From positions 15,448 to 79,447 of the forward strand of contig JALWAP010000107.1 of NCBI GenBank assembly GCA_027016315.1: a stretch of DNA of 64,000 nt. The letters are read 5' to 3'. Made by a program: the position numbers and the translations under genes. The notes under the pieces were generated by a model that had not been told where the DNA came from, did not search any database, and was given only the letters and a program-made list of their open reading frames with translations. The stretch is from Anaerolineae bacterium. GTDB lineage: Bacteria; Chloroflexota; Anaerolineae; S016-19. Shown here in pieces: positions 1,777 through 57,351 of the stretch (position 1 is its first letter; every line of letters starts with the position of its first letter).

Positions 1777-3393
1777 CTACCCCTCCTCATCCAAGGGAAT
1801 AAAGAAATCCATCGCCTCAATGGCGTCAAAATATGGCGTCCGCTTACCTACCCATCCGCGTTTTTGGACCTCTGGGGAGACGCTTGCCAATGGTGGCAAC
1901 TCAGGAATTCGGTATAGTCTTCTGAAATTTTCCACGGCCTCGGGTGTGCCCTGACGGAGAACCTCTCGCAAAGACTTTACTTTATTTCGCCGATCGCGCC
2001 ATGCATCGTCCGTCTTGAAGGCCAGGGTGATCTCAACAAAATTACGCCAAGTTCGCCACCCATTATACGGGGCGAGCTCGTTCCCCAATGCCACAGGGCG
2101 CATCAGCAGTGTATGTCCACCCGGCAGATGATAGGCGTGACGAATTTCTTCCAAATCGCCAAGCAGGCCAGCACTGGCAAAATGCCAGTCCAAGGCGTTC
2201 AAATCGTGGTCACCATTGCGTTGGTCTTGAATAAACGCTTTCGCCGAGTGGTTGAGGGCCTCGGTCAAAACATACGCCTGCGCAAAAGGATAGTGGGTTT
2301 TCACAATGGCGATGCCCCCACGAGCGTAAATCGGCCATTGGTTTCCTTCTGGGCCGATCAAACGCTGCTGGGTAAGCACTTTAATGTAATGGGCGGCCAA
2401 GCCAAGCCCAAGACGGCCTTCGGTGACAAAAGTAACATCATCGCCGCCATAGACAATAGGTCGAATGGGGAGATATATCTTTCCCTTTTCATCTTTGGGG
2501 GTAATGCCGTATTCCGATTTTAACTTCTCCATATTTACGGCTAAAAGCCGGATTGTGCTCTCTAATGCAACGTGGGCGGCCCTTTTCATACTCTGAGAGA
2601 AAGCCCTCATGGCCTCCACATAGGCACGATTCTTTTCAGAAGCAGCATAATACTGGGAGAGTTTCCGAACTTTCTTTCCCATGCCATTCACGTCCACGTG
2701 AACCACTGCCATATAACTACTCTCGCCCTCGCTGCGTCCCAAGTGATCAAAATCCTTTGGAATGCCAAAGTCACCCCAAGCCCCCTTGAATTCTGTCCAC
2801 AGATACTGATGAGCATCGGAAGCAGCACGAATTTTCGCTTCAGCCTCAGCAGAGAGCAAACTCCCATTCTCCCGGGCAACAGCGGGTAAGCCGGTAAACG
2901 CCCCGGAGGCCGTAACTCCCATACCAAGAAACGGCATATCTGTAGGGCGATTTTGCTTTTGCCGGGCCAGCCTCTCCATAGTGCGTTGCACAACGCCTTC
3001 TTCACCACCAAGGGCGCACTTTCTCCAGTCAAATGGCTCAGAATGAGCCATGACCACTTGTAAGCCAGGCGCTTCACGAAGCGCCCGATGTGTCAACCTT
3101 GCGGCGAACTCACGGGCAAGTGCATCCGACGAAAACAAGACCACAGCGTTGCCACCGCCGAAATAGATTACTTCTGCATCTAATTTGCCCTCTTCTATTC
3201 TTTTGTTAGAGTCAAATATTATCTCTTTATCCTCTAACTTCACATTGCACGCTTTTGGCAATGCTTCGATAACCCAACGGCTTGTCGCTTGCTTTACAAT
3301 CCACGAAGCACCTACGTTCTGACGCAGGTGGTTTGTACCATAAATATAGGGCTGAATACCCGATGTATCGACGATAGTGAGGATGTATTCCAT
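1777..3393 (-). CDS. cas10: Cas10-like cyclase/polymerase subunit lacking an HD nuclease domain (538 aa)
   Basis: Track ORF is 1777-3447. I prefer ATG at 3393 (RBS AAGGAGAGAGCAAATG). The protein opens directly with palm-1 motif IVDTSGIQPYIYG. Palm-2 has an intact VYGGDDVTF, with GGDD encoded at nt 2437-2448. There is no H..HD motif and no room for an HD domain N-terminal of palm 1. No CxxC pairs lie between the palms. Confidence 0.85.
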   Translation of the reverse strand: MEYILTIVDTSGIQPYIYGTNHLRQNVGASWIVKQATSRWVIEALPKACNVKLEDKEIIFDSNKRIEEGKLDAEVIYFGGGNAVVLFSSDALAREFAARLTHRALREAPGLQVVMAHSEPFDWRKCALGGEEGVVQRTMERLARQKQNRPTDMPFLGMGVTASGAFTGLPAVARENGSLLSAEAEAKIRAASDAHQYLWTEFKGAWGDFGIPKDFDHLGRSEGESSYMAVVHVDVNGMGKKVRKLSQYYAASEKNRAYVEAMRAFSQSMKRAAHVALESTIRLLAVNMEKLKSEYGITPKDEKGKIYLPIRPIVYGGDDVTFVTEGRLGLGLAAHYIKVLTQQRLIGPEGNQWPIYARGGIAIVKTHYPFAQAYVLTEALNHSAKAFIQDQRNGDHDLNALDWHFASAGLLGDLEEIRHAYHLPGGHTLLMRPVALGNELAPYNGWRTWRNFVEITLAFKTDDAWRDRRNKVKSLREVLRQGTPEAVENFRRLYRIPELPPLASVSPEVQKRGWVGKRTPYFDAIEAMDFFIPLDEEG

Positions 3394-3419
3394 TTGCTCT
3401 CTCCTTAATACTGCAAAAT

Positions 3420-4652
3420 TCACATATGGGCCGATTTGCGGATCCACGCCTTGAGATACTCGGCCAACTCTGGTAACTCCTTAGGGCCAAAAGCCTTCAC
3501 ATGCCCCTCCGTTAACCAATCCTCATCAACTTCGCGCTCGATTTTAGCAGGGTCATCATACATTGAGACCAAAGCTGTATGGGCTTCATCCCCTCCCATC
3601 TGGTGGGAGCGCAGATACGCTTCAAACAATTTACTCTTACACAAAGACTTCCTGCCGTCGGTAGTGCAAGAGACTGCAAACAATTGGTATCCTCTTAAAG
3701 CCGCTACATCGAACTCAAAATGTTTATCCGCCTCCGAGGGAGTCTCAATGTTCATTCCCACCTCGTGCAAATCAACCTCTGAGGCAATGCGCTGGAAGGA
3801 CATCAAGACATAATGCTCCAGCCATTTGCCTGCCAGCCACTCAGCCAAGTGCTCGACGTTCCACTTTTTGTGGCCAACCCGAGACCTCAGACCATCTTCC
3901 AAGTCACCTAAAGACAAAGCCGTAGACATCCCAAAAGCCTGAAATACTCGTCCGGGCGGCCCCGATGAGGGTAAAGGCACCTCTCTCAAATCCCTCTTAC
4001 TCTTAAACTTGATGAATCTCGGGGGCCGTCTTAGATTTTGAGCACACCACTCGCGCCACTTTTCTCGTGAAATTCCGTCAGCGTGAATTTCAACCAGCAC
4101 CTTAATGACTTCAGGAAACCACACTTCAGCCGCAGGCTCTTTTTTGAGAGTGCGACCATGTAACTGCATCAAGGTCCGAAGGGGTAAACGGCAATCTGTC
4201 CCCACTTTGCGAACGTGAGTAGACCCATCAAGTTGCTCAATCCTCATTGCCAATTCCCTAGCATCCAGGTAACTGAATACGGCGTCGGAGCGCTTATCTG
4301 CAACAGCCCGATAAGCGTGAACAGCCATCGCTTTGGTGCCCCCCGTGTAATGCAAACCTATACTTCCTCTATCAGCAAACTCTTGGACCAGATCACCAAC
4401 CGCTTTGTAAATTCGTGAAGCATCTGTCCAATGAATTTCCCGCGGGGCAGGGACTTTCCATTTTTGGGCGCTCTGTTCAAAAACTTGCTTCAATCGCTCA
4501 GCGATCGCATAAGTATCTGCCGTAGCCAATAAAACGATAGTGCCCTCTGGTTTGGTGAGTAAACATCCGGCTACATAATTCGGCAGCGGATTCGTACCAA
4601 CTAGCAAGAACAGCACATCCGTCTGATATGCTTTCCACCGTTCACTTGGCAT
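3420..4652 (-). CDS. CARF domain + PD-(D/E)xK-fold protein, Can2/Card1-like cOA-sensing effector (catalytic ExK position substituted)
   Basis: Track ORF is 3420-4688. ATG at 4652 has a GGGAGGGG RBS, giving 410 aa. N-terminal CARF-type motifs are LFLLVGTNPLPN and LHYTGGTKAM. The C-terminal nuclease-fold motifs are GKWLEHYV, FEFD(315)V and then LFAVSCTT. Where relatives read I-E-C-K-T (from memory), this protein reads S328-C-T330 (nt 3663-3671). Confidence 0.75.
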   Translation of the reverse strand: MPSERWKAYQTDVLFLLVGTNPLPNYVAGCLLTKPEGTIVLLATADTYAIAERLKQVFEQSAQKWKVPAPREIHWTDASRIYKAVGDLVQEFADRGSIGLHYTGGTKAMAVHAYRAVADKRSDAVFSYLDARELAMRIEQLDGSTHVRKVGTDCRLPLRTLMQLHGRTLKKEPAAEVWFPEVIKVLVEIHADGISREKWREWCAQNLRRPPRFIKFKSKRDLREVPLPSSGPPGRVFQAFGMSTALSLGDLEDGLRSRVGHKKWNVEHLAEWLAGKWLEHYVLMSFQRIASEVDLHEVGMNIETPSEADKHFEFDVAALRGYQLFAVSCTTDGRKSLCKSKLFEAYLRSHQMGGDEAHTALVSMYDDPAKIEREVDEDWLTEGHVKAFGPKELPELAEYLKAWIRKSAHM

Positions 4653-4727
4653 AAGCCTTTCCCCTCCCTGCGTCTTATAATACTTCACTCTCCACCTTTT
4701 TACATCAGAACAACCTCTGAAATCCCC

Positions 4728-5609
4728 CTACTTTTCCCCAAACCACCTCCTCATCACCGGCAGGCAGGGGGCGAAATGCTCCCGGACGAAGTGATAGCTG
4801 ATGTACTCATCAGGCTCCAGGCCCCACGCGTTCCGGCATTCGTCCAGGATCGGGGTCTTGTGAGAGTCCACCGTCTTCAGCGTGATCACCAGCTTCTCGG
4901 CCACCTCCTGCGGTGTCAGGCCTTCGGCAAGCGCAATCAGCGTCTCTCGCTGGCGGGGCGTCAGCCGCTCCCACACCTGCCTGCACCGCTGGATGCTCAT
5001 GGCGTCCAGCATACGGGTGTAGGAAGAAAGAGCCTCCGATGGAGAAACCCCGGCCAGCATCCGGAGCGTGGGGAAATACGCCCCCCACGGCGCCATCGGT
5101 ATCTGGATCAGGCGAACGTTTTCCCCTGTAGGGTCGTGCAATATCGCACCATCCCGGGCGCGTTCCAGAAAATCCGCCTCCGTGAACATATGCCACGCCC
5201 TGTCCTGATGCCCGAACATCAACATCGCCGCAGAAAGCGCCATGAACCCGATCATCCTACGCCCACCTGCCAGCACCAGGTGCAGGCTCCGCTCCTCGTC
5301 CTTCAGGCTCCTGACCAGATTCCACACGTCCATCCAGACCGCTTCTGCGTCCGCCTCCGTCCTCACATCGCGGAGCGGCTCGCCCGAAGGTCTGCGCAGC
5401 AGGTGCCTTCGGAACCGGACCTTCCTGCCAGCGTAGGAACCTCCTGCGAACTCCCGCGCCAACTGAGAAAGCGCCCTGTTCACCCTGACATCCTCCGGCG
5501 ACAGATGCAGCACCACCACCTCGTCCACGCCATCGTCGAGCAGCAAATCGGCGGCGAAAGTCACCACCTGCGCCTGCCCGCCCATCGTAACCACCAGAGT
5601 TTTTCCCAC
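4728..5609 (-). CDS. CARF-like sensor domain fused to a C-terminal LuxR/GerE-type HTH (putative cOA-responsive transcription regulator)
   Basis: GTG start with a GGGGGAGAA RBS. N-terminal motifs LVVTMGGQAQVVTFAADLL and LVLAGGRRMIGF resemble the NE0113-type CRISPR-associated Rossmann (CARF) family, recalled from memory. The C-terminus LTPRQRETLIALAEGLTPQEVAEKLVITLKTVDSHKTPIL is a canonical LuxR-family HTH. It is the first gene of the minus-strand cas operon. Confidence 0.75.
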   Translation of the reverse strand: MGKTLVVTMGGQAQVVTFAADLLLDDGVDEVVVLHLSPEDVRVNRALSQLAREFAGGSYAGRKVRFRRHLLRRPSGEPLRDVRTEADAEAVWMDVWNLVRSLKDEERSLHLVLAGGRRMIGFMALSAAMLMFGHQDRAWHMFTEADFLERARDGAILHDPTGENVRLIQIPMAPWGAYFPTLRMLAGVSPSEALSSYTRMLDAMSIQRCRQVWERLTPRQRETLIALAEGLTPQEVAEKLVITLKTVDSHKTPILDECRNAWGLEPDEYISYHFVREHFAPCLPVMRRWFGEK

Positions 5610-5624
5610 ATTCTCCCCCGAATA

Positions 5625-5640
5625 TCAGAGATTTCTCCGA
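5625..5640. promoter_or_regulatory. Imperfect 16-bp inverted repeat in the divergent control region (candidate operator)
   Basis: TCAGAGATTTCTCCGA matches its own reverse complement at 12 of 16 positions (half-sites GAGA / TCTC). It lies 16-31 nt upstream of the CARF-LuxR GTG start and about 50 nt upstream of the AAA-Csx3 ATG. Confidence 0.25.
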
Positions 5641-5691
5641 TGCAAACCCCGCCTTTCTGAGTTAAACTTGTACCGAGAGGAGCGAAAGACC

Positions 5692-6798
5692 ATGTCCGAA
5701 TTTCCGGCCATCCTCATCGGCGGCCCGCCCCACAGCGGGAAATCGGTGCTGGCGTACCACCTGACCCGCAGACTCCGCCAGCTCCGGGTGGATCACTACG
5801 TCCTCCGGGCCTACCCCGACGGAGAAGGCGACTGGAGCTACGAAGCCGACCAGAACCTGGTCCGCGCCATCAGAATCAAAGGCATCGGCGACGACAGATG
5901 GGTCGCCAGGATACGCCGCGACATCGCCCGAAGGCACCTGCCGCTCATCGTGGACGTGGGCGGCAAACCCACCCCGTCCCAGGAAACCATCTTCGACGAA
6001 TGCACCCACGCCATCCTCCTCTGGCCCGACGAGATCGCCCATCAGGAGTGGATCTCCCGCATGGAACGCCACGGCCTGCCGATCATCGCCGACCTGCACT
6101 CATCCCTCAATGGCACCGACGAAATCGCCTCCACGGGACCGGTGGTACGGGGCACCATATCCGGGCTGGACAGAACCAACCCGAAGCTCGGACCGGCGTT
6201 CGACGCCGTGTTCGAAAAAGTTGCCGGACTCTTCGCCACCGACAGGGAAGCCCTGCGCCGGAAGCACATCCTGGAAGCTCCGGTGGACCTGGCGATAGAC
6301 ATCGAACGACTCGCCTACACCCTGAAAGTCCCCGGCAACCCACCCCGATGGCGTCCGGAGGACATTCCGGCGCTCATAGACTACCTGCCGGAGCACAAGC
6401 CGCTGGGAGTGTACGGCAGGGCCCCTTGCTGGATATACTCGGCGCTGGCGGCCTATTCGCTTCCCGCCGAATTCTGGCAGTTCGACCCAAGGTACGGGTG
6501 GATGAAGCCGCCGACACTCCGCATTTCTGGGAAGTGGAACGATGCTCCGTGGACTGTGATGTATTCCCAGGAAGGTAAAGTTATTCGCCTGTATTTTGCT
6601 CTAAGGCACCACTACGTGGACCCGATAGACGCTGGAGGGCAACCTGTACCAAAAGTCGCTCCCGAACGCTCAGTCATCCTGGAAGGCAAACTCCCTCTGT
6701 GGCTTTTCACGGCTTTGACCAGAACTTACGCTCCGTATCATGCAGTGTTCGTATCTCAACCCCAGCTTTCGGACAAGCCGGTAAAAGTCTCTAAATGA
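5692..6798 (+). CDS. csx3: P-loop NTPase fused to two tandem Csx3 (Crn3 ring-nuclease-type) modules
   Basis: Track ORF starts at TTG 5668. ATG 5692 has a GAGGAG RBS, giving 368 aa. Walker A is ILIGGPPHSGKS and Walker B-like is PLIVDVGG. Module A (about aa 198-275) reads LGVYGRAPCWIYSALAAYS..FWQFDPRYGW. Module B (about aa 286-365) reads VILEGKLPLWLFTALTRTYAPYHAVFVSQPQL. Both mirror the A. fulgidus Csx3 core VVISGRGPIWLHCFLAHKYHH..VAVYDPRLG, recalled from memory. Confidence 0.8.
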   Translation: MSEFPAILIGGPPHSGKSVLAYHLTRRLRQLRVDHYVLRAYPDGEGDWSYEADQNLVRAIRIKGIGDDRWVARIRRDIARRHLPLIVDVGGKPTPSQETIFDECTHAILLWPDEIAHQEWISRMERHGLPIIADLHSSLNGTDEIASTGPVVRGTISGLDRTNPKLGPAFDAVFEKVAGLFATDREALRRKHILEAPVDLAIDIERLAYTLKVPGNPPRWRPEDIPALIDYLPEHKPLGVYGRAPCWIYSALAAYSLPAEFWQFDPRYGWMKPPTLRISGKWNDAPWTVMYSQEGKVIRLYFALRHHYVDPIDAGGQPVPKVAPERSVILEGKLPLWLFTALTRTYAPYHAVFVSQPQLSDKPVKVSK

Positions 6799-7222: not shown

Positions 7223-8632
7223 CTACGGGGTCCATATGGTCGTCAGGTCCTTCGAGTTGTTGGATTCATTGCTCTCGGGAACCTGATTTTCCGCATCCAC
7301 TACTGCTCTTTGGTGTCTGGTTTGCTGTGAGCTACAGGTAAAGGTGAACGAGTAACTCGTGCTCCAGGTCGCTCCTGCATTCAAACCCGAAACAGTGGAT
7401 TGTCTCATTGGGCTCGGCGCGCTCGAGCTCCAATAGTAGTAGACCTCGAAACTCCCTGCCGCCACGTTACCCACATTCTTCACGGTGATATGGACCCAGT
7501 AGGAATCTCCGCAGTGCGGATTGGGCTTCGACGTGAAGCTGGAGACGATCAAATCCGGCTTCAAAGTGAACACCGGAGTCGGCAAAGAAAGGCTTGGCAA
7601 GACGTTTATCGTGACATGCCTGTCTTCGGCGGTCCCGTCGGATTTTACGATGTGCAGCGTATACGTCTTGTTGGCCGAAGGACATACCTGCTTGCTGCCG
7701 TGTCCAGCGACTCCGGCGCCTTCGAGGTACACTGCCTGAACACCCTCCACATCCCAATGAAGATTCGTGCACTGACCGTTGAAGATGCTCGCCTTGTCCG
7801 ACCAGAAATTAGCCTGAAAAGCTGCGCCCTCGCCTGCCTCTGGCGGGGACGTAGGTACGGCCGTCGGAGGAGCAGGTGTCGTTCCCGGGGCTTCCGATGG
7901 GATCGGAGGGACATCCGCAACCTGTACGTTTTCCACATTGCTCGGAGAGACGTAAGCGGCTGCGACCCAACCGCGCCGCCCGGTGTCGGCTGGAAACTCG
8001 ATCTGCCACCACGCTCCGGTCGGGTCCTTGCCGGTGATGACGGCGCTGTTTCCTTTCTGCAGCACCCCGACCTTCGGATAATCAGTGCCTGGGCCAGTAC
8101 GCACGTTCAGATCAACCGCAGCCACCAGGCTTGGGACGGATGGAACTGGGGTATCCGGCTTCTTCGTTGCCGTAGGTTCCTTCGTCGCTGCAGCAGCCGC
8201 AGGCGGCGTCGAGGTGGGAGGCGCCGGAGTTGGCGACGCTTCTGCCGTTTTCGGCGCCACGGATATCACCAGAGGAAACGGCGACGGTTGCGTTCCATCG
8301 TGGCAATACCCCCGTGCTTCCAGAGAGTAAGTTCCGGCGGAAGTTGGCATCCATTTGAACGTTACCGGAAGTTCCTTCGGGTAGCTACCTTGCGGGGCAT
8401 CCGCTCGTCCGATTGCAGCCCCGTTCACCCACAACTCCACCCTTTCCACGCCGCTGCCACATGCGGCCTTCACTTTCACGTCAATCGTATCGTTGGAGAA
8501 TACAGCGCTCCCCGGAGCAGGAGATTCTATCACGATGGCCGACCCACCGGTCGGAAGTTTCGAATGGGTACATGCTGTCAATAGCAAGACAAACGAGAGG
8601 GCCAGTAGGAAGAAGAATTTCGGGCGATGCAT
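7223..8632 (-). CDS. Secreted multidomain lipoprotein (Ig-like, SH3b and CARDB-like domains, Pro/Thr-rich linkers)
   Basis: Track ORF is 7223-8725. I prefer MHRPKFFFLLALSFVLLLTAC (signal peptide plus lipobox, ATG 8632). The SH3b-like stretch is DLNVRTGPGTDYPKVGVLQKGNSAVITG..WWQIEF. The C-terminal CARDB-like stretch is PDLIVSS..ITVKNVGNVAAGSFEVYYYW..NESNN. Confidence 0.8.
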   Translation of the reverse strand: MHRPKFFFLLALSFVLLLTACTHSKLPTGGSAIVIESPAPGSAVFSNDTIDVKVKAACGSGVERVELWVNGAAIGRADAPQGSYPKELPVTFKWMPTSAGTYSLEARGYCHDGTQPSPFPLVISVAPKTAEASPTPAPPTSTPPAAAAATKEPTATKKPDTPVPSVPSLVAAVDLNVRTGPGTDYPKVGVLQKGNSAVITGKDPTGAWWQIEFPADTGRRGWVAAAYVSPSNVENVQVADVPPIPSEAPGTTPAPPTAVPTSPPEAGEGAAFQANFWSDKASIFNGQCTNLHWDVEGVQAVYLEGAGVAGHGSKQVCPSANKTYTLHIVKSDGTAEDRHVTINVLPSLSLPTPVFTLKPDLIVSSFTSKPNPHCGDSYWVHITVKNVGNVAAGSFEVYYYWSSSAPSPMRQSTVSGLNAGATWSTSYSFTFTCSSQQTRHQRAVVDAENQVPESNESNNSKDLTTIWTP

Positions 8633-9009
8633 TTCACTTTCCCCTTTCGGCAACCTGTGCCTGCTTGAAAGCGGTACGGATTTTGTCGACGATCGAATTA
8701 TATTCGAAAATTTTCTCATCGTCAAATTTTTCTAAAATCAACAAAAACTCGCTAATCCAAGGACCTTTCCCCCCAGCGGGATTGTACCAACCCCCGCATG
8801 GTCGCCACTACCCGACCATAACGCCAAAGGGAGTAAGCCCACAGCGGTTGGCGCTGCTCAAACAGGACGAAAATCTATCGGGAGAGAGTCAGAGGGAACG
8901 CCAAGACGGGATTCGGAACCGGGGTCATGGCCTCGGCTCACCTCATTGACAAAAACCTCTTCGGCATGGTATCTCTCCATAGGTGAAAACTTTCGAGTGG
9001 TCGAGGAAC

Positions 9010-56970: not shown

Positions 56971-57351
56971 GCTGGGGGTTGCTCCCCCGTTTTGGTCGAG
57001 TCAGGCAACTCGACCTACAGGTATTCTGTAGGGCGAGCCGTCTGGCTCGCCCTGTCGAGCTAACAGCTTGACCTACAACCACGCAGAGGCGCGCCCACCG
57101 CTTTGGTCGAGTCAGGCGACTCGACCTACACGTGCTTTTCGGTCGAGTCAGACGACTTGACCTACGGCGTGCTTTGTAGTGGCGAGCCGTCTGGCTCGCC
57201 ATGTCGAGCTGACAGCTCGACCTACGACCACGCAGAGCGCGCTCCCCCACTTTGGTCGAGTCAGGCGACTCGACCTACACGTGCTCTTCGGTCGAGCCAG
57301 GCGACTCGACCGACGGCGTGCTTTGTAGTGGCGAGCCGTGTGGCTCGGGGC
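56971..57351. repeat. Tandem array (about 2.5 copies of a roughly 148-bp unit) of composite palindromic (REP/BIME-like) elements
   Basis: Unit 57102-57249 is repeated from 57250 as a truncated copy. A shorter copy at 56991-57101 lacks the second hairpin. Each full unit holds four different hairpins: GGTCGAGTCAGGCGACTCGACC, GGTCGAGTCAGACGACTTGACC, GGCGAGCCGTCTGGCTCGCC and GTCGAGCTGACAGCTCGAC. Confidence 0.85.

Follow-up and report, generated by a model that had tools for sequence, protein, structure and literature searches.

Does homology to Csx3 still imply an off-switch when the Csx3 fold occurs twice in one chain and is joined to a P-loop nucleoside triphosphatase (NTPase)? Few off-switches of type III CRISPR signalling are known, Crn3/Csx3 among them, and the question is raised by a gene at positions 5692-6798 (forward strand) of a 64,000-nucleotide stretch of contig JALWAP010000107.1 from an Anaerolineae bacterium, the whole of which is referred to here as the window. 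A sequence-only reading of the gene had described a P-loop NTPase fused to two tandem Csx3 modules of ring-nuclease type. The single chain with its NTPase and two Csx3-derived modules is confirmed by profile and fold matches. The residues of the modules point to a different function: most probably the two Csx3 modules together sense a ligand and do not work as a ring nuclease of the Crn3 type. We favour, with a probability of roughly 0.55, a reading in which the protein is an NTPase gated by cyclic tetra-adenylate (cA4), with an asymmetric single-chain Csx3 sensor pocket that switches the N-terminal P-loop NTPase.

A P-loop NTPase followed by two unequal Csx3 modules

The window protein is a full-length member of C3a67 'AAA-Csx3', an accessory family that is already catalogued and is uncharacterised; PADLOC profile PDLC01059 matches residues 1-365 over profile positions 1-363 of 382 (E 1.2e-117, 391.5 bits). 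The gene and the parts of its product are as follows.

5668-6798, + strand: open reading frame, likely start ATG at 5692, 368 aa
5675-5682, + strand: Shine-Dalgarno-like GAGAGGAG, 9 nt 5' of ATG 5692 (read off the sequence)
5692-6798, + strand: NTPase-Csx3-Csx3 gene of the C3a67 'AAA-Csx3' family, stop codon included (open reading frame, translation, PADLOC)
5692-6273, + strand: P-loop NTPase domain, residues 1-194 (Foldseek; sub-threshold Pfam matches; Slr7080 and PADLOC Csx3-AAA matches)
5719-5745, + strand: Walker A, GGPPHSGKS, residues 10-18; G16, K17 and S18 invariant (121 homologues)
5815-5835, + strand: PDGEGDW loop, residues 42-48, family-specific, after strand 2; P42, G46, D47 and W48 invariant
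5944-5964, + strand: Walker B or DxxG-like LIVDVGG, residues 85-91; L85, V87, D88, G90 and G91 invariant
6283-6507, + strand: module A, truncated Csx3-like, residues 198-272 (hhalign, canonical-Csx3 profile, Foldseek, conservation, coevolution)
6508-6549, + strand: inter-module linker PPTLRISGKWNDAP, residues 273-286, between both profile matches; P274 and L276 nearly invariant
6550-6795, + strand: module B, complete Csx3 domain, residues 287-368 (Pfam, PDB profile search, Foldseek, residue table)

All of the motifs quoted in the sequence-only reading were found in the translation: GPPHSGKS at residues 11-18 and LIVDVGG at 85-91 in the NTPase, LGVYGRAPCWIYSALAAYS at 238-256 and FWQFDPRYGW at 261-270 in module A, and VILEGKLPLWLFTALTRTYAPYHAVFVSQPQL at 328-359 in module B.

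Module B carries the whole Csx3 fold. Scanned alone, it scores 35.2 bits (E 1e-8) against Pfam Cas_csx3 (PF09620), which has a gathering score of 21, and a PDB profile search (281-379 aligned) pairs it with AfCsx3 over the full length of the latter (E 1e-11). Foldseek, run on an AlphaFold2 model of the whole protein (predicted local distance difference test score, pLDDT, 89.4; predicted template modelling score, pTM, 0.86), aligned one Csx3-sized part with 6YUD_A at a template modelling (TM) score of 0.75 and a root-mean-square deviation of 1.4 Å over 84 columns; we identify this part with module B, since that is the region for which the PDB profile search covers all of AfCsx3. Its secondary structure, β-β-α-β-α-β, is Csx3-like, and its C-terminus is about 15 residues shorter in the sub-clade of the window protein than in most relatives.

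Module A gives the weaker profile matches. The Pfam model reports two stretches on the whole protein (41.9 bits), one of them at residues 317-360, and to this extent the two matches anticipated from the sequence did appear; module A scanned alone, on the other hand, reaches only 14.3 bits (E 0.036) and falls below the gathering score. As an independent reference, 96 stand-alone Csx3 proteins were gathered with AfCsx3 as the query, and a hidden Markov model (HMM) built from these alone finds two matches in the window protein, at residues 229-269 (14.8 bits) and 293-359 (25.9 bits). In profile-profile comparison by hhalign, the module A family profile matches the stand-alone Csx3 profile with 97.6% probability (E 2.8e-12, 54 columns), placing residues 219-272 onto AfCsx3 21-76, and module B does so with 99.2% probability (E 2e-19, 80 columns). 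The NTPase domain, used as a control, gives 0.1%, and the best of 30 column-shuffled versions of module A gives 2.4%. The two modules had been described as strongly diverged from one another, and this is borne out by their own profile comparison (82% probability, E 1e-5), in which they share 20% identity over 30 columns.

Since Foldseek returns a single Csx3 alignment per target for the whole model, module A was modelled separately (pLDDT 90.4). Its five top matches among 350,542 PDB chains are all Csx3 (3WZG, 3WZH, 6YUD and 6VJG), although the matches are weak and individually non-significant (E 0.085-0.45, TM 0.42-0.49). The order of its elements is strand (201-203), helix, helix (222-231), β (238-241), α (246-255), β (261-265) and β (269-271). 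Module A is thus a truncated Csx3, comprising an α1-β3-α2-β4-β5 core and one N-terminal strand; the hairpin of β1 and β2 is missing, as are the strands at the C-terminal end. A 'complete Csx3-like core' had been ascribed to both modules, but as a Csx3 domain only module B is complete. Of 116 full-length representatives at 50% identity, 114 are recognised by an HMM specific to module A and 115 by one specific to module B, which makes the tandem architecture a property of the family and not a peculiarity of one gene. The canonical-Csx3 HMM finds two separate matches (i-E < 0.01) in 71 of the same 116.

AAA+ proteins typically combine a core whose C-terminal lid is helical with sensor motifs and an arginine finger, while SIMIBI GTPases combine Walker A and DxxG with NKxD, and P-loop kinases carry an Arg-bearing lid and an acceptor-site Asp after strand 2. 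An AAA+ identity was considered for the N-terminal domain and rejected: PF00004 gives no match, Pfam yielding only sub-threshold P-loop matches (AAA_18, KTI12 and APS_kinase) over residues 4-83, and no AAA+ protein occurs among the 50 best fold matches. The top fold matches are the GPN-loop GTPase Npa3 (5HCN), APS kinases, FtsY, MinD and adenylate kinase, the best of them, Npa3, with a probability of 1.0 but an E-value of 1e-3. Alongside Walker A the domain has D88-x-G-G, and no NKxD motif was seen in the family consensus or the list of conserved columns. A flexible stretch (residues 41-70) contains R58, R61 and K63 as well as the PDGEGDW loop; it is modelled with low confidence (block pLDDT 62-72) and is probably mobile. 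Overall the domain resembles kinase/SIMIBI-like NTPases of the kinase, GPN-loop or FtsY type, and 'AAA' is a misnomer. A tblastn search with the domain returned weak matches on Acinetobacter plasmids to ParA-family partition ATPases (E ~9e-4, 33% identity, residues 7-109), and these agree better with an affinity to the SIMIBI class than with AAA+. Synechocystis Slr7080 has this domain, too, as its C-terminal half (74.5 bits; PADLOC Csx3-AAA, E 9e-34). The remark that AAA-Csx3 fusions had been noted before is correct, the fusion being on record under that label (Shah et al., 2018), although the NTPase is by fold and Pfam not AAA+.

Relatives of the protein are numerous and phylogenetically confined. 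More than 1258 homologues were found at E<=1e-3 (90% clustering), all 120 of those listed covering 93-100% of the query, and 596 representatives remain at 50% clustering; among 185,579 species genomes, 349 contain a relative, and the 80 loci listed belong almost entirely to Chloroflexota (Anaerolineae, Thermoflexales, Caldilineae and Ardenticatenia). Source annotations of these homologues read simply 'Csx3'. The family corresponds to cluster 67 of Shah et al. (2018), with Caur_2269 as exemplar, which was described just as 'AAA ATPase + Csx3', in the reverse order of the cyanobacterial Csx3-AAA; the same authors suggested that cyclic oligoadenylate (cOA) regulates the ATPase of these fusions. 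The window protein shares with that cluster the order of NTPase then Csx3, the association with type III systems and the Chloroflexota host range. The published description makes no mention of a second, truncated Csx3, of lost catalytic histidines or of an NTPase outside AAA+. In the literature searched, these fusions are named only by Shah et al. and in one Grad-seq paper, neither of which mentions a second Csx3 module, such that the tandem architecture appears undescribed so far, although an earlier mention elsewhere is possible. Relative to that literature, the new elements are the tandem, half-degenerate Csx3, the absence of the Crn3 histidines, the non-AAA+ NTPase and a near-obligate partner gene encoding a CARF domain with a helix-turn-helix (HTH).

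The predicted ligand face and the probable packing of the two modules

The catalytic requirements of Crn3 come from AfCsx3, where cleavage of cA4 is abolished in H60A and D69A and strongly reduced in R71A and H80A (Athukoralage et al., PMC7371418). The ligand is contacted on the 'D69 face' by I22, S44, G45, R46, I49 and R71, and a second dimer completes the Mn2+-dependent site with its 'H60 face' of histidines (PMC7371418). H57, H60, D69, R71 and H80 are present in 96/96 of the stand-alone Csx3 proteins, the sole exception being an engineered H60A PDB sequence. We mapped these positions from AfCsx3 onto both modules across 121 homologues, as listed here.

AfCsx3 I22: module A, W220 (121/121); module B, V309 (Leu in 94/121)
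AfCsx3 S44: module A, Y241 (121/121); module B, E331 (Ser in 103/121)
AfCsx3 G45: module A, G242 (G 80, D 38); module B, G332 (121/121)
AfCsx3 R46: module A, R243 (121/121); module B, K333 (115/121)
AfCsx3 D69: module A, D265 (121/121); module B, Q356 (113/121)
AfCsx3 R71: module A, R267 (121/121); module B, Q358 (99/121)
AfCsx3 H57, H60: module A, A254/L257; module B, R344/A347; columns variable across the homologues

W220, Y241, R243, D265 and R267 of module A are the most conserved residues of the C-terminal half of the protein, and the D69-face pair is kept in one of the two half-sites, as D265/R267 in module A, its counterpart in module B being Q356/Q358. The catalytic histidines have fared differently, for neither module has an equivalent of H57 or H60, and the position of H80 is variable in relatives and lies beyond the end of the chain in the sub-clade of the window protein. 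The Crn3 equivalog model TIGR02579 scores 27.4 bits, under its cut-off of 55.4. With the binding face conserved and asymmetric and the Crn3 histidines gone, the residue pattern argues for a ligand sensor, and the ring-nuclease-type function originally assigned to the two modules is not supported, on three counts: the histidines are missing from both, module B has its pair of glutamines, and the score against the Crn3 model falls short.

How the two modules might be arranged around a ligand was approached through coevolution. In the AfCsx3 dimer, each subunit has its H57 and H60 at the symmetry plane (PMC7371418), and a Csx3-like pseudo-dimer is therefore expected to couple residues ~254-258 of module A with ~344-348 of module B; this prediction was made before the coupling analysis was run. 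Mean-field direct coupling analysis (DCA) of 304 non-identical family sequences (effective number 227) ranked ~65,000 pairs. The top within-module pairs join Csx3 strands and helices, for example S327-A351 and V328-V352 (β3-β4), and others connect strand 198-205 to β3/β4 in module A; their agreement with a single Rossmann-like sheet suggests that the signal is real. Between the modules, Q263-T340 ranks 9, P274-A341 ranks 14 and A254-T343 ranks 26, with Y249-T340, S250-T343 and C246-L336 lower down. Genuine compensation is visible in these inter-module pairs, Q/T being swapped for L, V or I with A or V, and L/A for A with V or T. This pattern of coevolution supports a packing in which α2 of module A would lie against α2 of module B near a pseudo-two-fold axis. 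The notion of an intramolecular pseudo-dimer with two unlike halves, put forward in the sequence-only reading, gains support from the same couplings.

The ranking also contains two pairs between the NTPase and module A, namely Y36-R267 at rank 13 and D47-R243 at rank 27, with D47 in the PDGEGDW loop (Y36 is encoded at 5797-5799, R267 at 6490-6492, D47 at 5830-5832 and R243 at 6418-6420). All four columns are more than 85% invariant and three are more than 90%, and the couplings are not trusted as contacts. A degenerate sub-clade may have produced them as an artefact, or they may mark a real contact between the NTPase and the pocket.

The CARF-HTH partner and the type III locus

A type III-D locus that continues past the start of the window has the NTPase-2xCsx3 gene at its edge. 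The neighbours of the gene on that side are all on the opposite strand.

1133-1774, - strand: Cas7 (RAMP), type III-D kind (Pfam RAMPs 6e-8; PADLOC Cas7_IIId 3.5e-70)
1777-3447, - strand: Cas10, type III-D kind, 556 aa (PADLOC Cas10d 3e-126; Pfam Cas10-Cmr2_palm2 26.6 bits, just under the cut-off of 27)
3420-4688, - strand: Card1/Can2-like CARF with PD-(D/E)xK nuclease (Pfam Card1_endonuc 3e-8; PADLOC CARF4--CARF_PDDEXK 1e-121)
4728-5609, - strand: CARF (Cas_NE0113 / 'CARF3') with LuxR/GerE HTH, 293 aa, the divergent partner (Cas_NE0113 7e-30, GerE 2e-7; PADLOC CARF3 3e-104)
5624-5641, no strand: imperfect palindrome ATCAGAG-ATTT-CTCCGAT, candidate operator, within the 82-bp divergent intergenic region

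Of the 67 loci with enough upstream sequence, 64 have a homologue of the CARF-HTH gene immediately upstream of the C3a67 gene and on the opposite strand, across a gap of 32-280 bp and with 40-80% identity over almost its whole length. The divergent pair recurs in seven long contigs (L001-L003, L084-L087), where it stands next to cas10 at the locus edge whether the locus is III-A (Csm) or III-D-like, which indicates that the pair moves as a unit between type III subtypes. A type III interference module adjoins the C3a67 gene in the window and in L001, L002 and L084-L087. Card1/Can2-like nucleases are a family of cA4-activated effectors, and one is present in the window, L084 and L085. No other known cOA effector was found within 10 kb in three of the seven long contigs (L001, L002 and L086), and a dedicated off-switch would have no target there; the CARF-HTH and C3a67 pair may thus be the response arm itself rather than an off-switch for another effector. 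In L086, the pair sits beside a small solitary Cas10-like gene (7452-8870, - strand, 472 aa) with no RAMP genes called within 10 kb, and this may be a minimal or decayed signalling locus.

The palindrome at 5624-5641 is a candidate operator for the HTH partner. The closest loci, L004 (ATCAGAGAAACCTCTGAT), L005 and L006, have versions of it at the corresponding position, and distant loci do not; a k-mer search across 71 divergent intergenic regions found no common operator. A search for repeats of >=24 nt at a spacing of <=120 nt found no CRISPR array in the window, and the array is presumably located beyond its start.

Proposed mechanism and its alternatives

In the mechanism that we favour, cOA made by Cas10 would bind one asymmetric pocket built jointly by modules A and B, packed in the manner of the subunits of a Csx3 homodimer. 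Module A would contribute W220, Y241, G242-R243 and D265-x-R267, and module B would contribute Y308-x-D310, G332-K333 and Q356-P-Q358. The ligand is probably cA4, given the Card1/Can2-type effector in the same locus, and the pocket is read as a sensor because neither module has the histidines of the Crn3 Mn2+ half-site. Binding would then switch NTPase activity, either allosterically or through ligand-driven self-association, the Walker A and B residues being intact. The CARF-HTH partner would sense the same or a related signal and control the divergent promoters, which would probably place the pair under cOA-responsive transcriptional control. It had been proposed that the NTPase might couple nucleotide hydrolysis to cOA turnover or assembly; judged by the residues, the direction from sensor to NTPase fits better than an NTPase coupled to turnover.

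The principle would not be without precedent. Can1, with two CARF domains in one polypeptide, and SAVED, with fused CARF-like halves, are single-chain pseudo-dimeric cOA sensors with an asymmetric pocket, and the C3a67 pocket may by analogy be a two-fold site formed from diverged tandem copies in one chain. The lineages of the folds differ, Csx3 being only distantly CARF-like and having STAS-like affinities, as do the outputs, which are nuclease, protease or TIR in Can1 and SAVED and a P-loop NTPase in C3a67.

Several points weigh against this mechanism. The pseudo-dimer geometry is predicted from coevolution at ~230 effective sequences, and the Y36-R267 and D47-R243 couplings are left unexplained by a simple 'open pocket' picture. 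Module A misses the Pfam threshold when taken alone, and its fold matches lack significance one by one. It also retains the D-x-R pair that is catalytic in Crn3, leaving room for single-site or metal-independent cleavage. Ligand binding and NTPase activity are predictions for the whole family, and deletion of the related slr7080 left plasmid interference unchanged.

The most direct alternative is that the tandem Csx3 is a working cA4 ring nuclease with unlike half-sites, in which ATP or GTP hydrolysis is coupled to turnover or to the assembly of head-to-tail oligomers. Both modules are Csx3 homologues, relatives carry the plain annotation 'Csx3', the equivalents of D69 and R71 are invariant in module A, and some loci, the window included, carry a Card1/Can2-like effector that such an enzyme could temper. 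We nonetheless regard it as unlikely, since the histidines that are universal in stand-alone Csx3 and required for its activity are conserved in neither module, module B replaces D69 and R71 alike by Q, the TIGR02579 score is about half of its cut-off, and three of the seven long contigs offer no known toxic effector to be switched off. A different division of labour, in which module A has degenerated into an adaptor that joins the NTPase to a single genuine Csx3, and ligand is bound by a homodimer through module B, would account for the sub-threshold Pfam score of module A, its missing hairpin and C-terminal strands and its weak fold matches, and it finds a parallel in the related Csx3-AAA family with its one Csx3 domain. 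It is hard to reconcile with a module A whose ligand-face residues are the most conserved of the C-terminal half and whose D69/R71 equivalents are more Csx3-like than those of module B; the strong profile match of module A to Csx3, which shuffled controls fail to reproduce, and the coevolution of the two α2 helices likewise speak against a mere adaptor, and we consider it improbable. As another possibility, the Csx3 modules might bind no nucleotide signal whatsoever, the protein serving as a structural or assembly factor of type III complexes whose NTPase acts on Cas proteins or CRISPR RNA independently of cOA. Slr7080 does co-fractionate with CRISPR3 (III-B) complexes in Grad-seq (PMC8136920), and in the loci examined the gene is always beside cas10 at the locus edge. 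Set against this, the equivalents of the cA4-contacting residues are invariant in module A, module B keeps part of the set (G332, K333 and, at the S44 position, Ser in 103/121), and the obligate partner, CARF-HTH, is a cOA-type sensor, which together render a role apart from cOA decidedly improbable.

Two bolder variants share a small chance of being right, and we hold them to be distinctly unlikely. The NTPase could be a kinase or transferase acting on the nucleotide in the Csx3 pocket, for instance by phosphorylating cA4 or its linear product; the couplings of the PDGEGDW loop and Y36 with R243 and R267, and one C-terminal NUDIX fusion, are a hint in this direction, and if true it would be a new way to edit or terminate a type III second messenger. 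Alternatively, NTPase-2xCsx3 and CARF-HTH could form a self-contained, portable cOA response module, the pair being the only effector arm in nuclease-free loci.

The nearest known systems compare with the window protein as follows. Crn3/AfCsx3 (AF_1864; 3WZG, 3WZI, 6YUD; PF09620; TIGR02579) is represented by its whole fold in module B and by the α1-β3-α2-β4-β5 core in module A; the Csx3 G-R/K...P-W motif is found in both modules and D-P-R-x-G in module A. Whereas Crn3 is a homodimer of ~100-aa subunits, the window protein has two fused copies in one chain together with an NTPase, and H57, H60 and H80 of Crn3 are in neither copy, D69/R71 having become Q/Q in module B. Crn3 itself binds cA4, is induced by it to form head-to-tail tetramers, and cleaves it to A2-P. 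The cyanobacterial Csx3-AAA (Shah cluster 35; Slr7080; Csx3' in PMC7371418) has the same NTPase, with Walker A, PDGEG(D/A)W (PDGEGAW in Slr7080) and DxGG; its Csx3 domain has lost the histidines too, and its gene also adjoins a type III locus. In contrast to C3a67, its domain order is reversed and it has one very diverged Csx3 domain (-1.3 bits against the canonical-Csx3 HMM), so that dimerisation would be needed for a two-fold pocket.

If C3a67 proteins are indeed cOA-gated NTPases, several hundred Chloroflexota type III loci have been credited with a ring nuclease that they probably lack, and they carry an uncharacterised signal-responsive enzyme instead. A Csx3 pseudo-dimer in a single chain, Crn3-like in one half and Q-P-Q in the other, would represent a natural experiment in the conversion of a symmetric cA4 site to an asymmetric one, and the near-obligate pairing with CARF-HTH offers a compact two-gene system that is open to direct testing.

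A few minor observations complete the picture. A search with the NTPase domain among 1.84 billion representatives was saturated by the same architecture and reached other partners only in two rare fusions: P0225 (586 aa), which joins the whole C3a67 unit to a C-terminal NUDIX domain at 453-575, and P0266 (2094 aa), in which the unit is extended at the N-terminus by 1700 aa that include a Dsr1-like region at 1150-1545. Both fusions are a hint of a link to nucleotide metabolism or defence. In the window, the next gene 3' (7223-8725, - strand, 500 aa) has Big_7, SH3_3 and CARDB domains and, by eye, a signal-peptide-like N-terminus; with this gene, which has no relation to CRISPR, the defence locus ends. 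Much further along, at 56984-57318, five copies of a 39-nt unit, each with a hairpin (GGTCGAGTCAGGCAACTCGACC), are spaced alternately by ~111 and ~36 nt; these repeats are not CRISPR-like and may be elements of the repetitive extragenic palindromic (REP) or terminator type.

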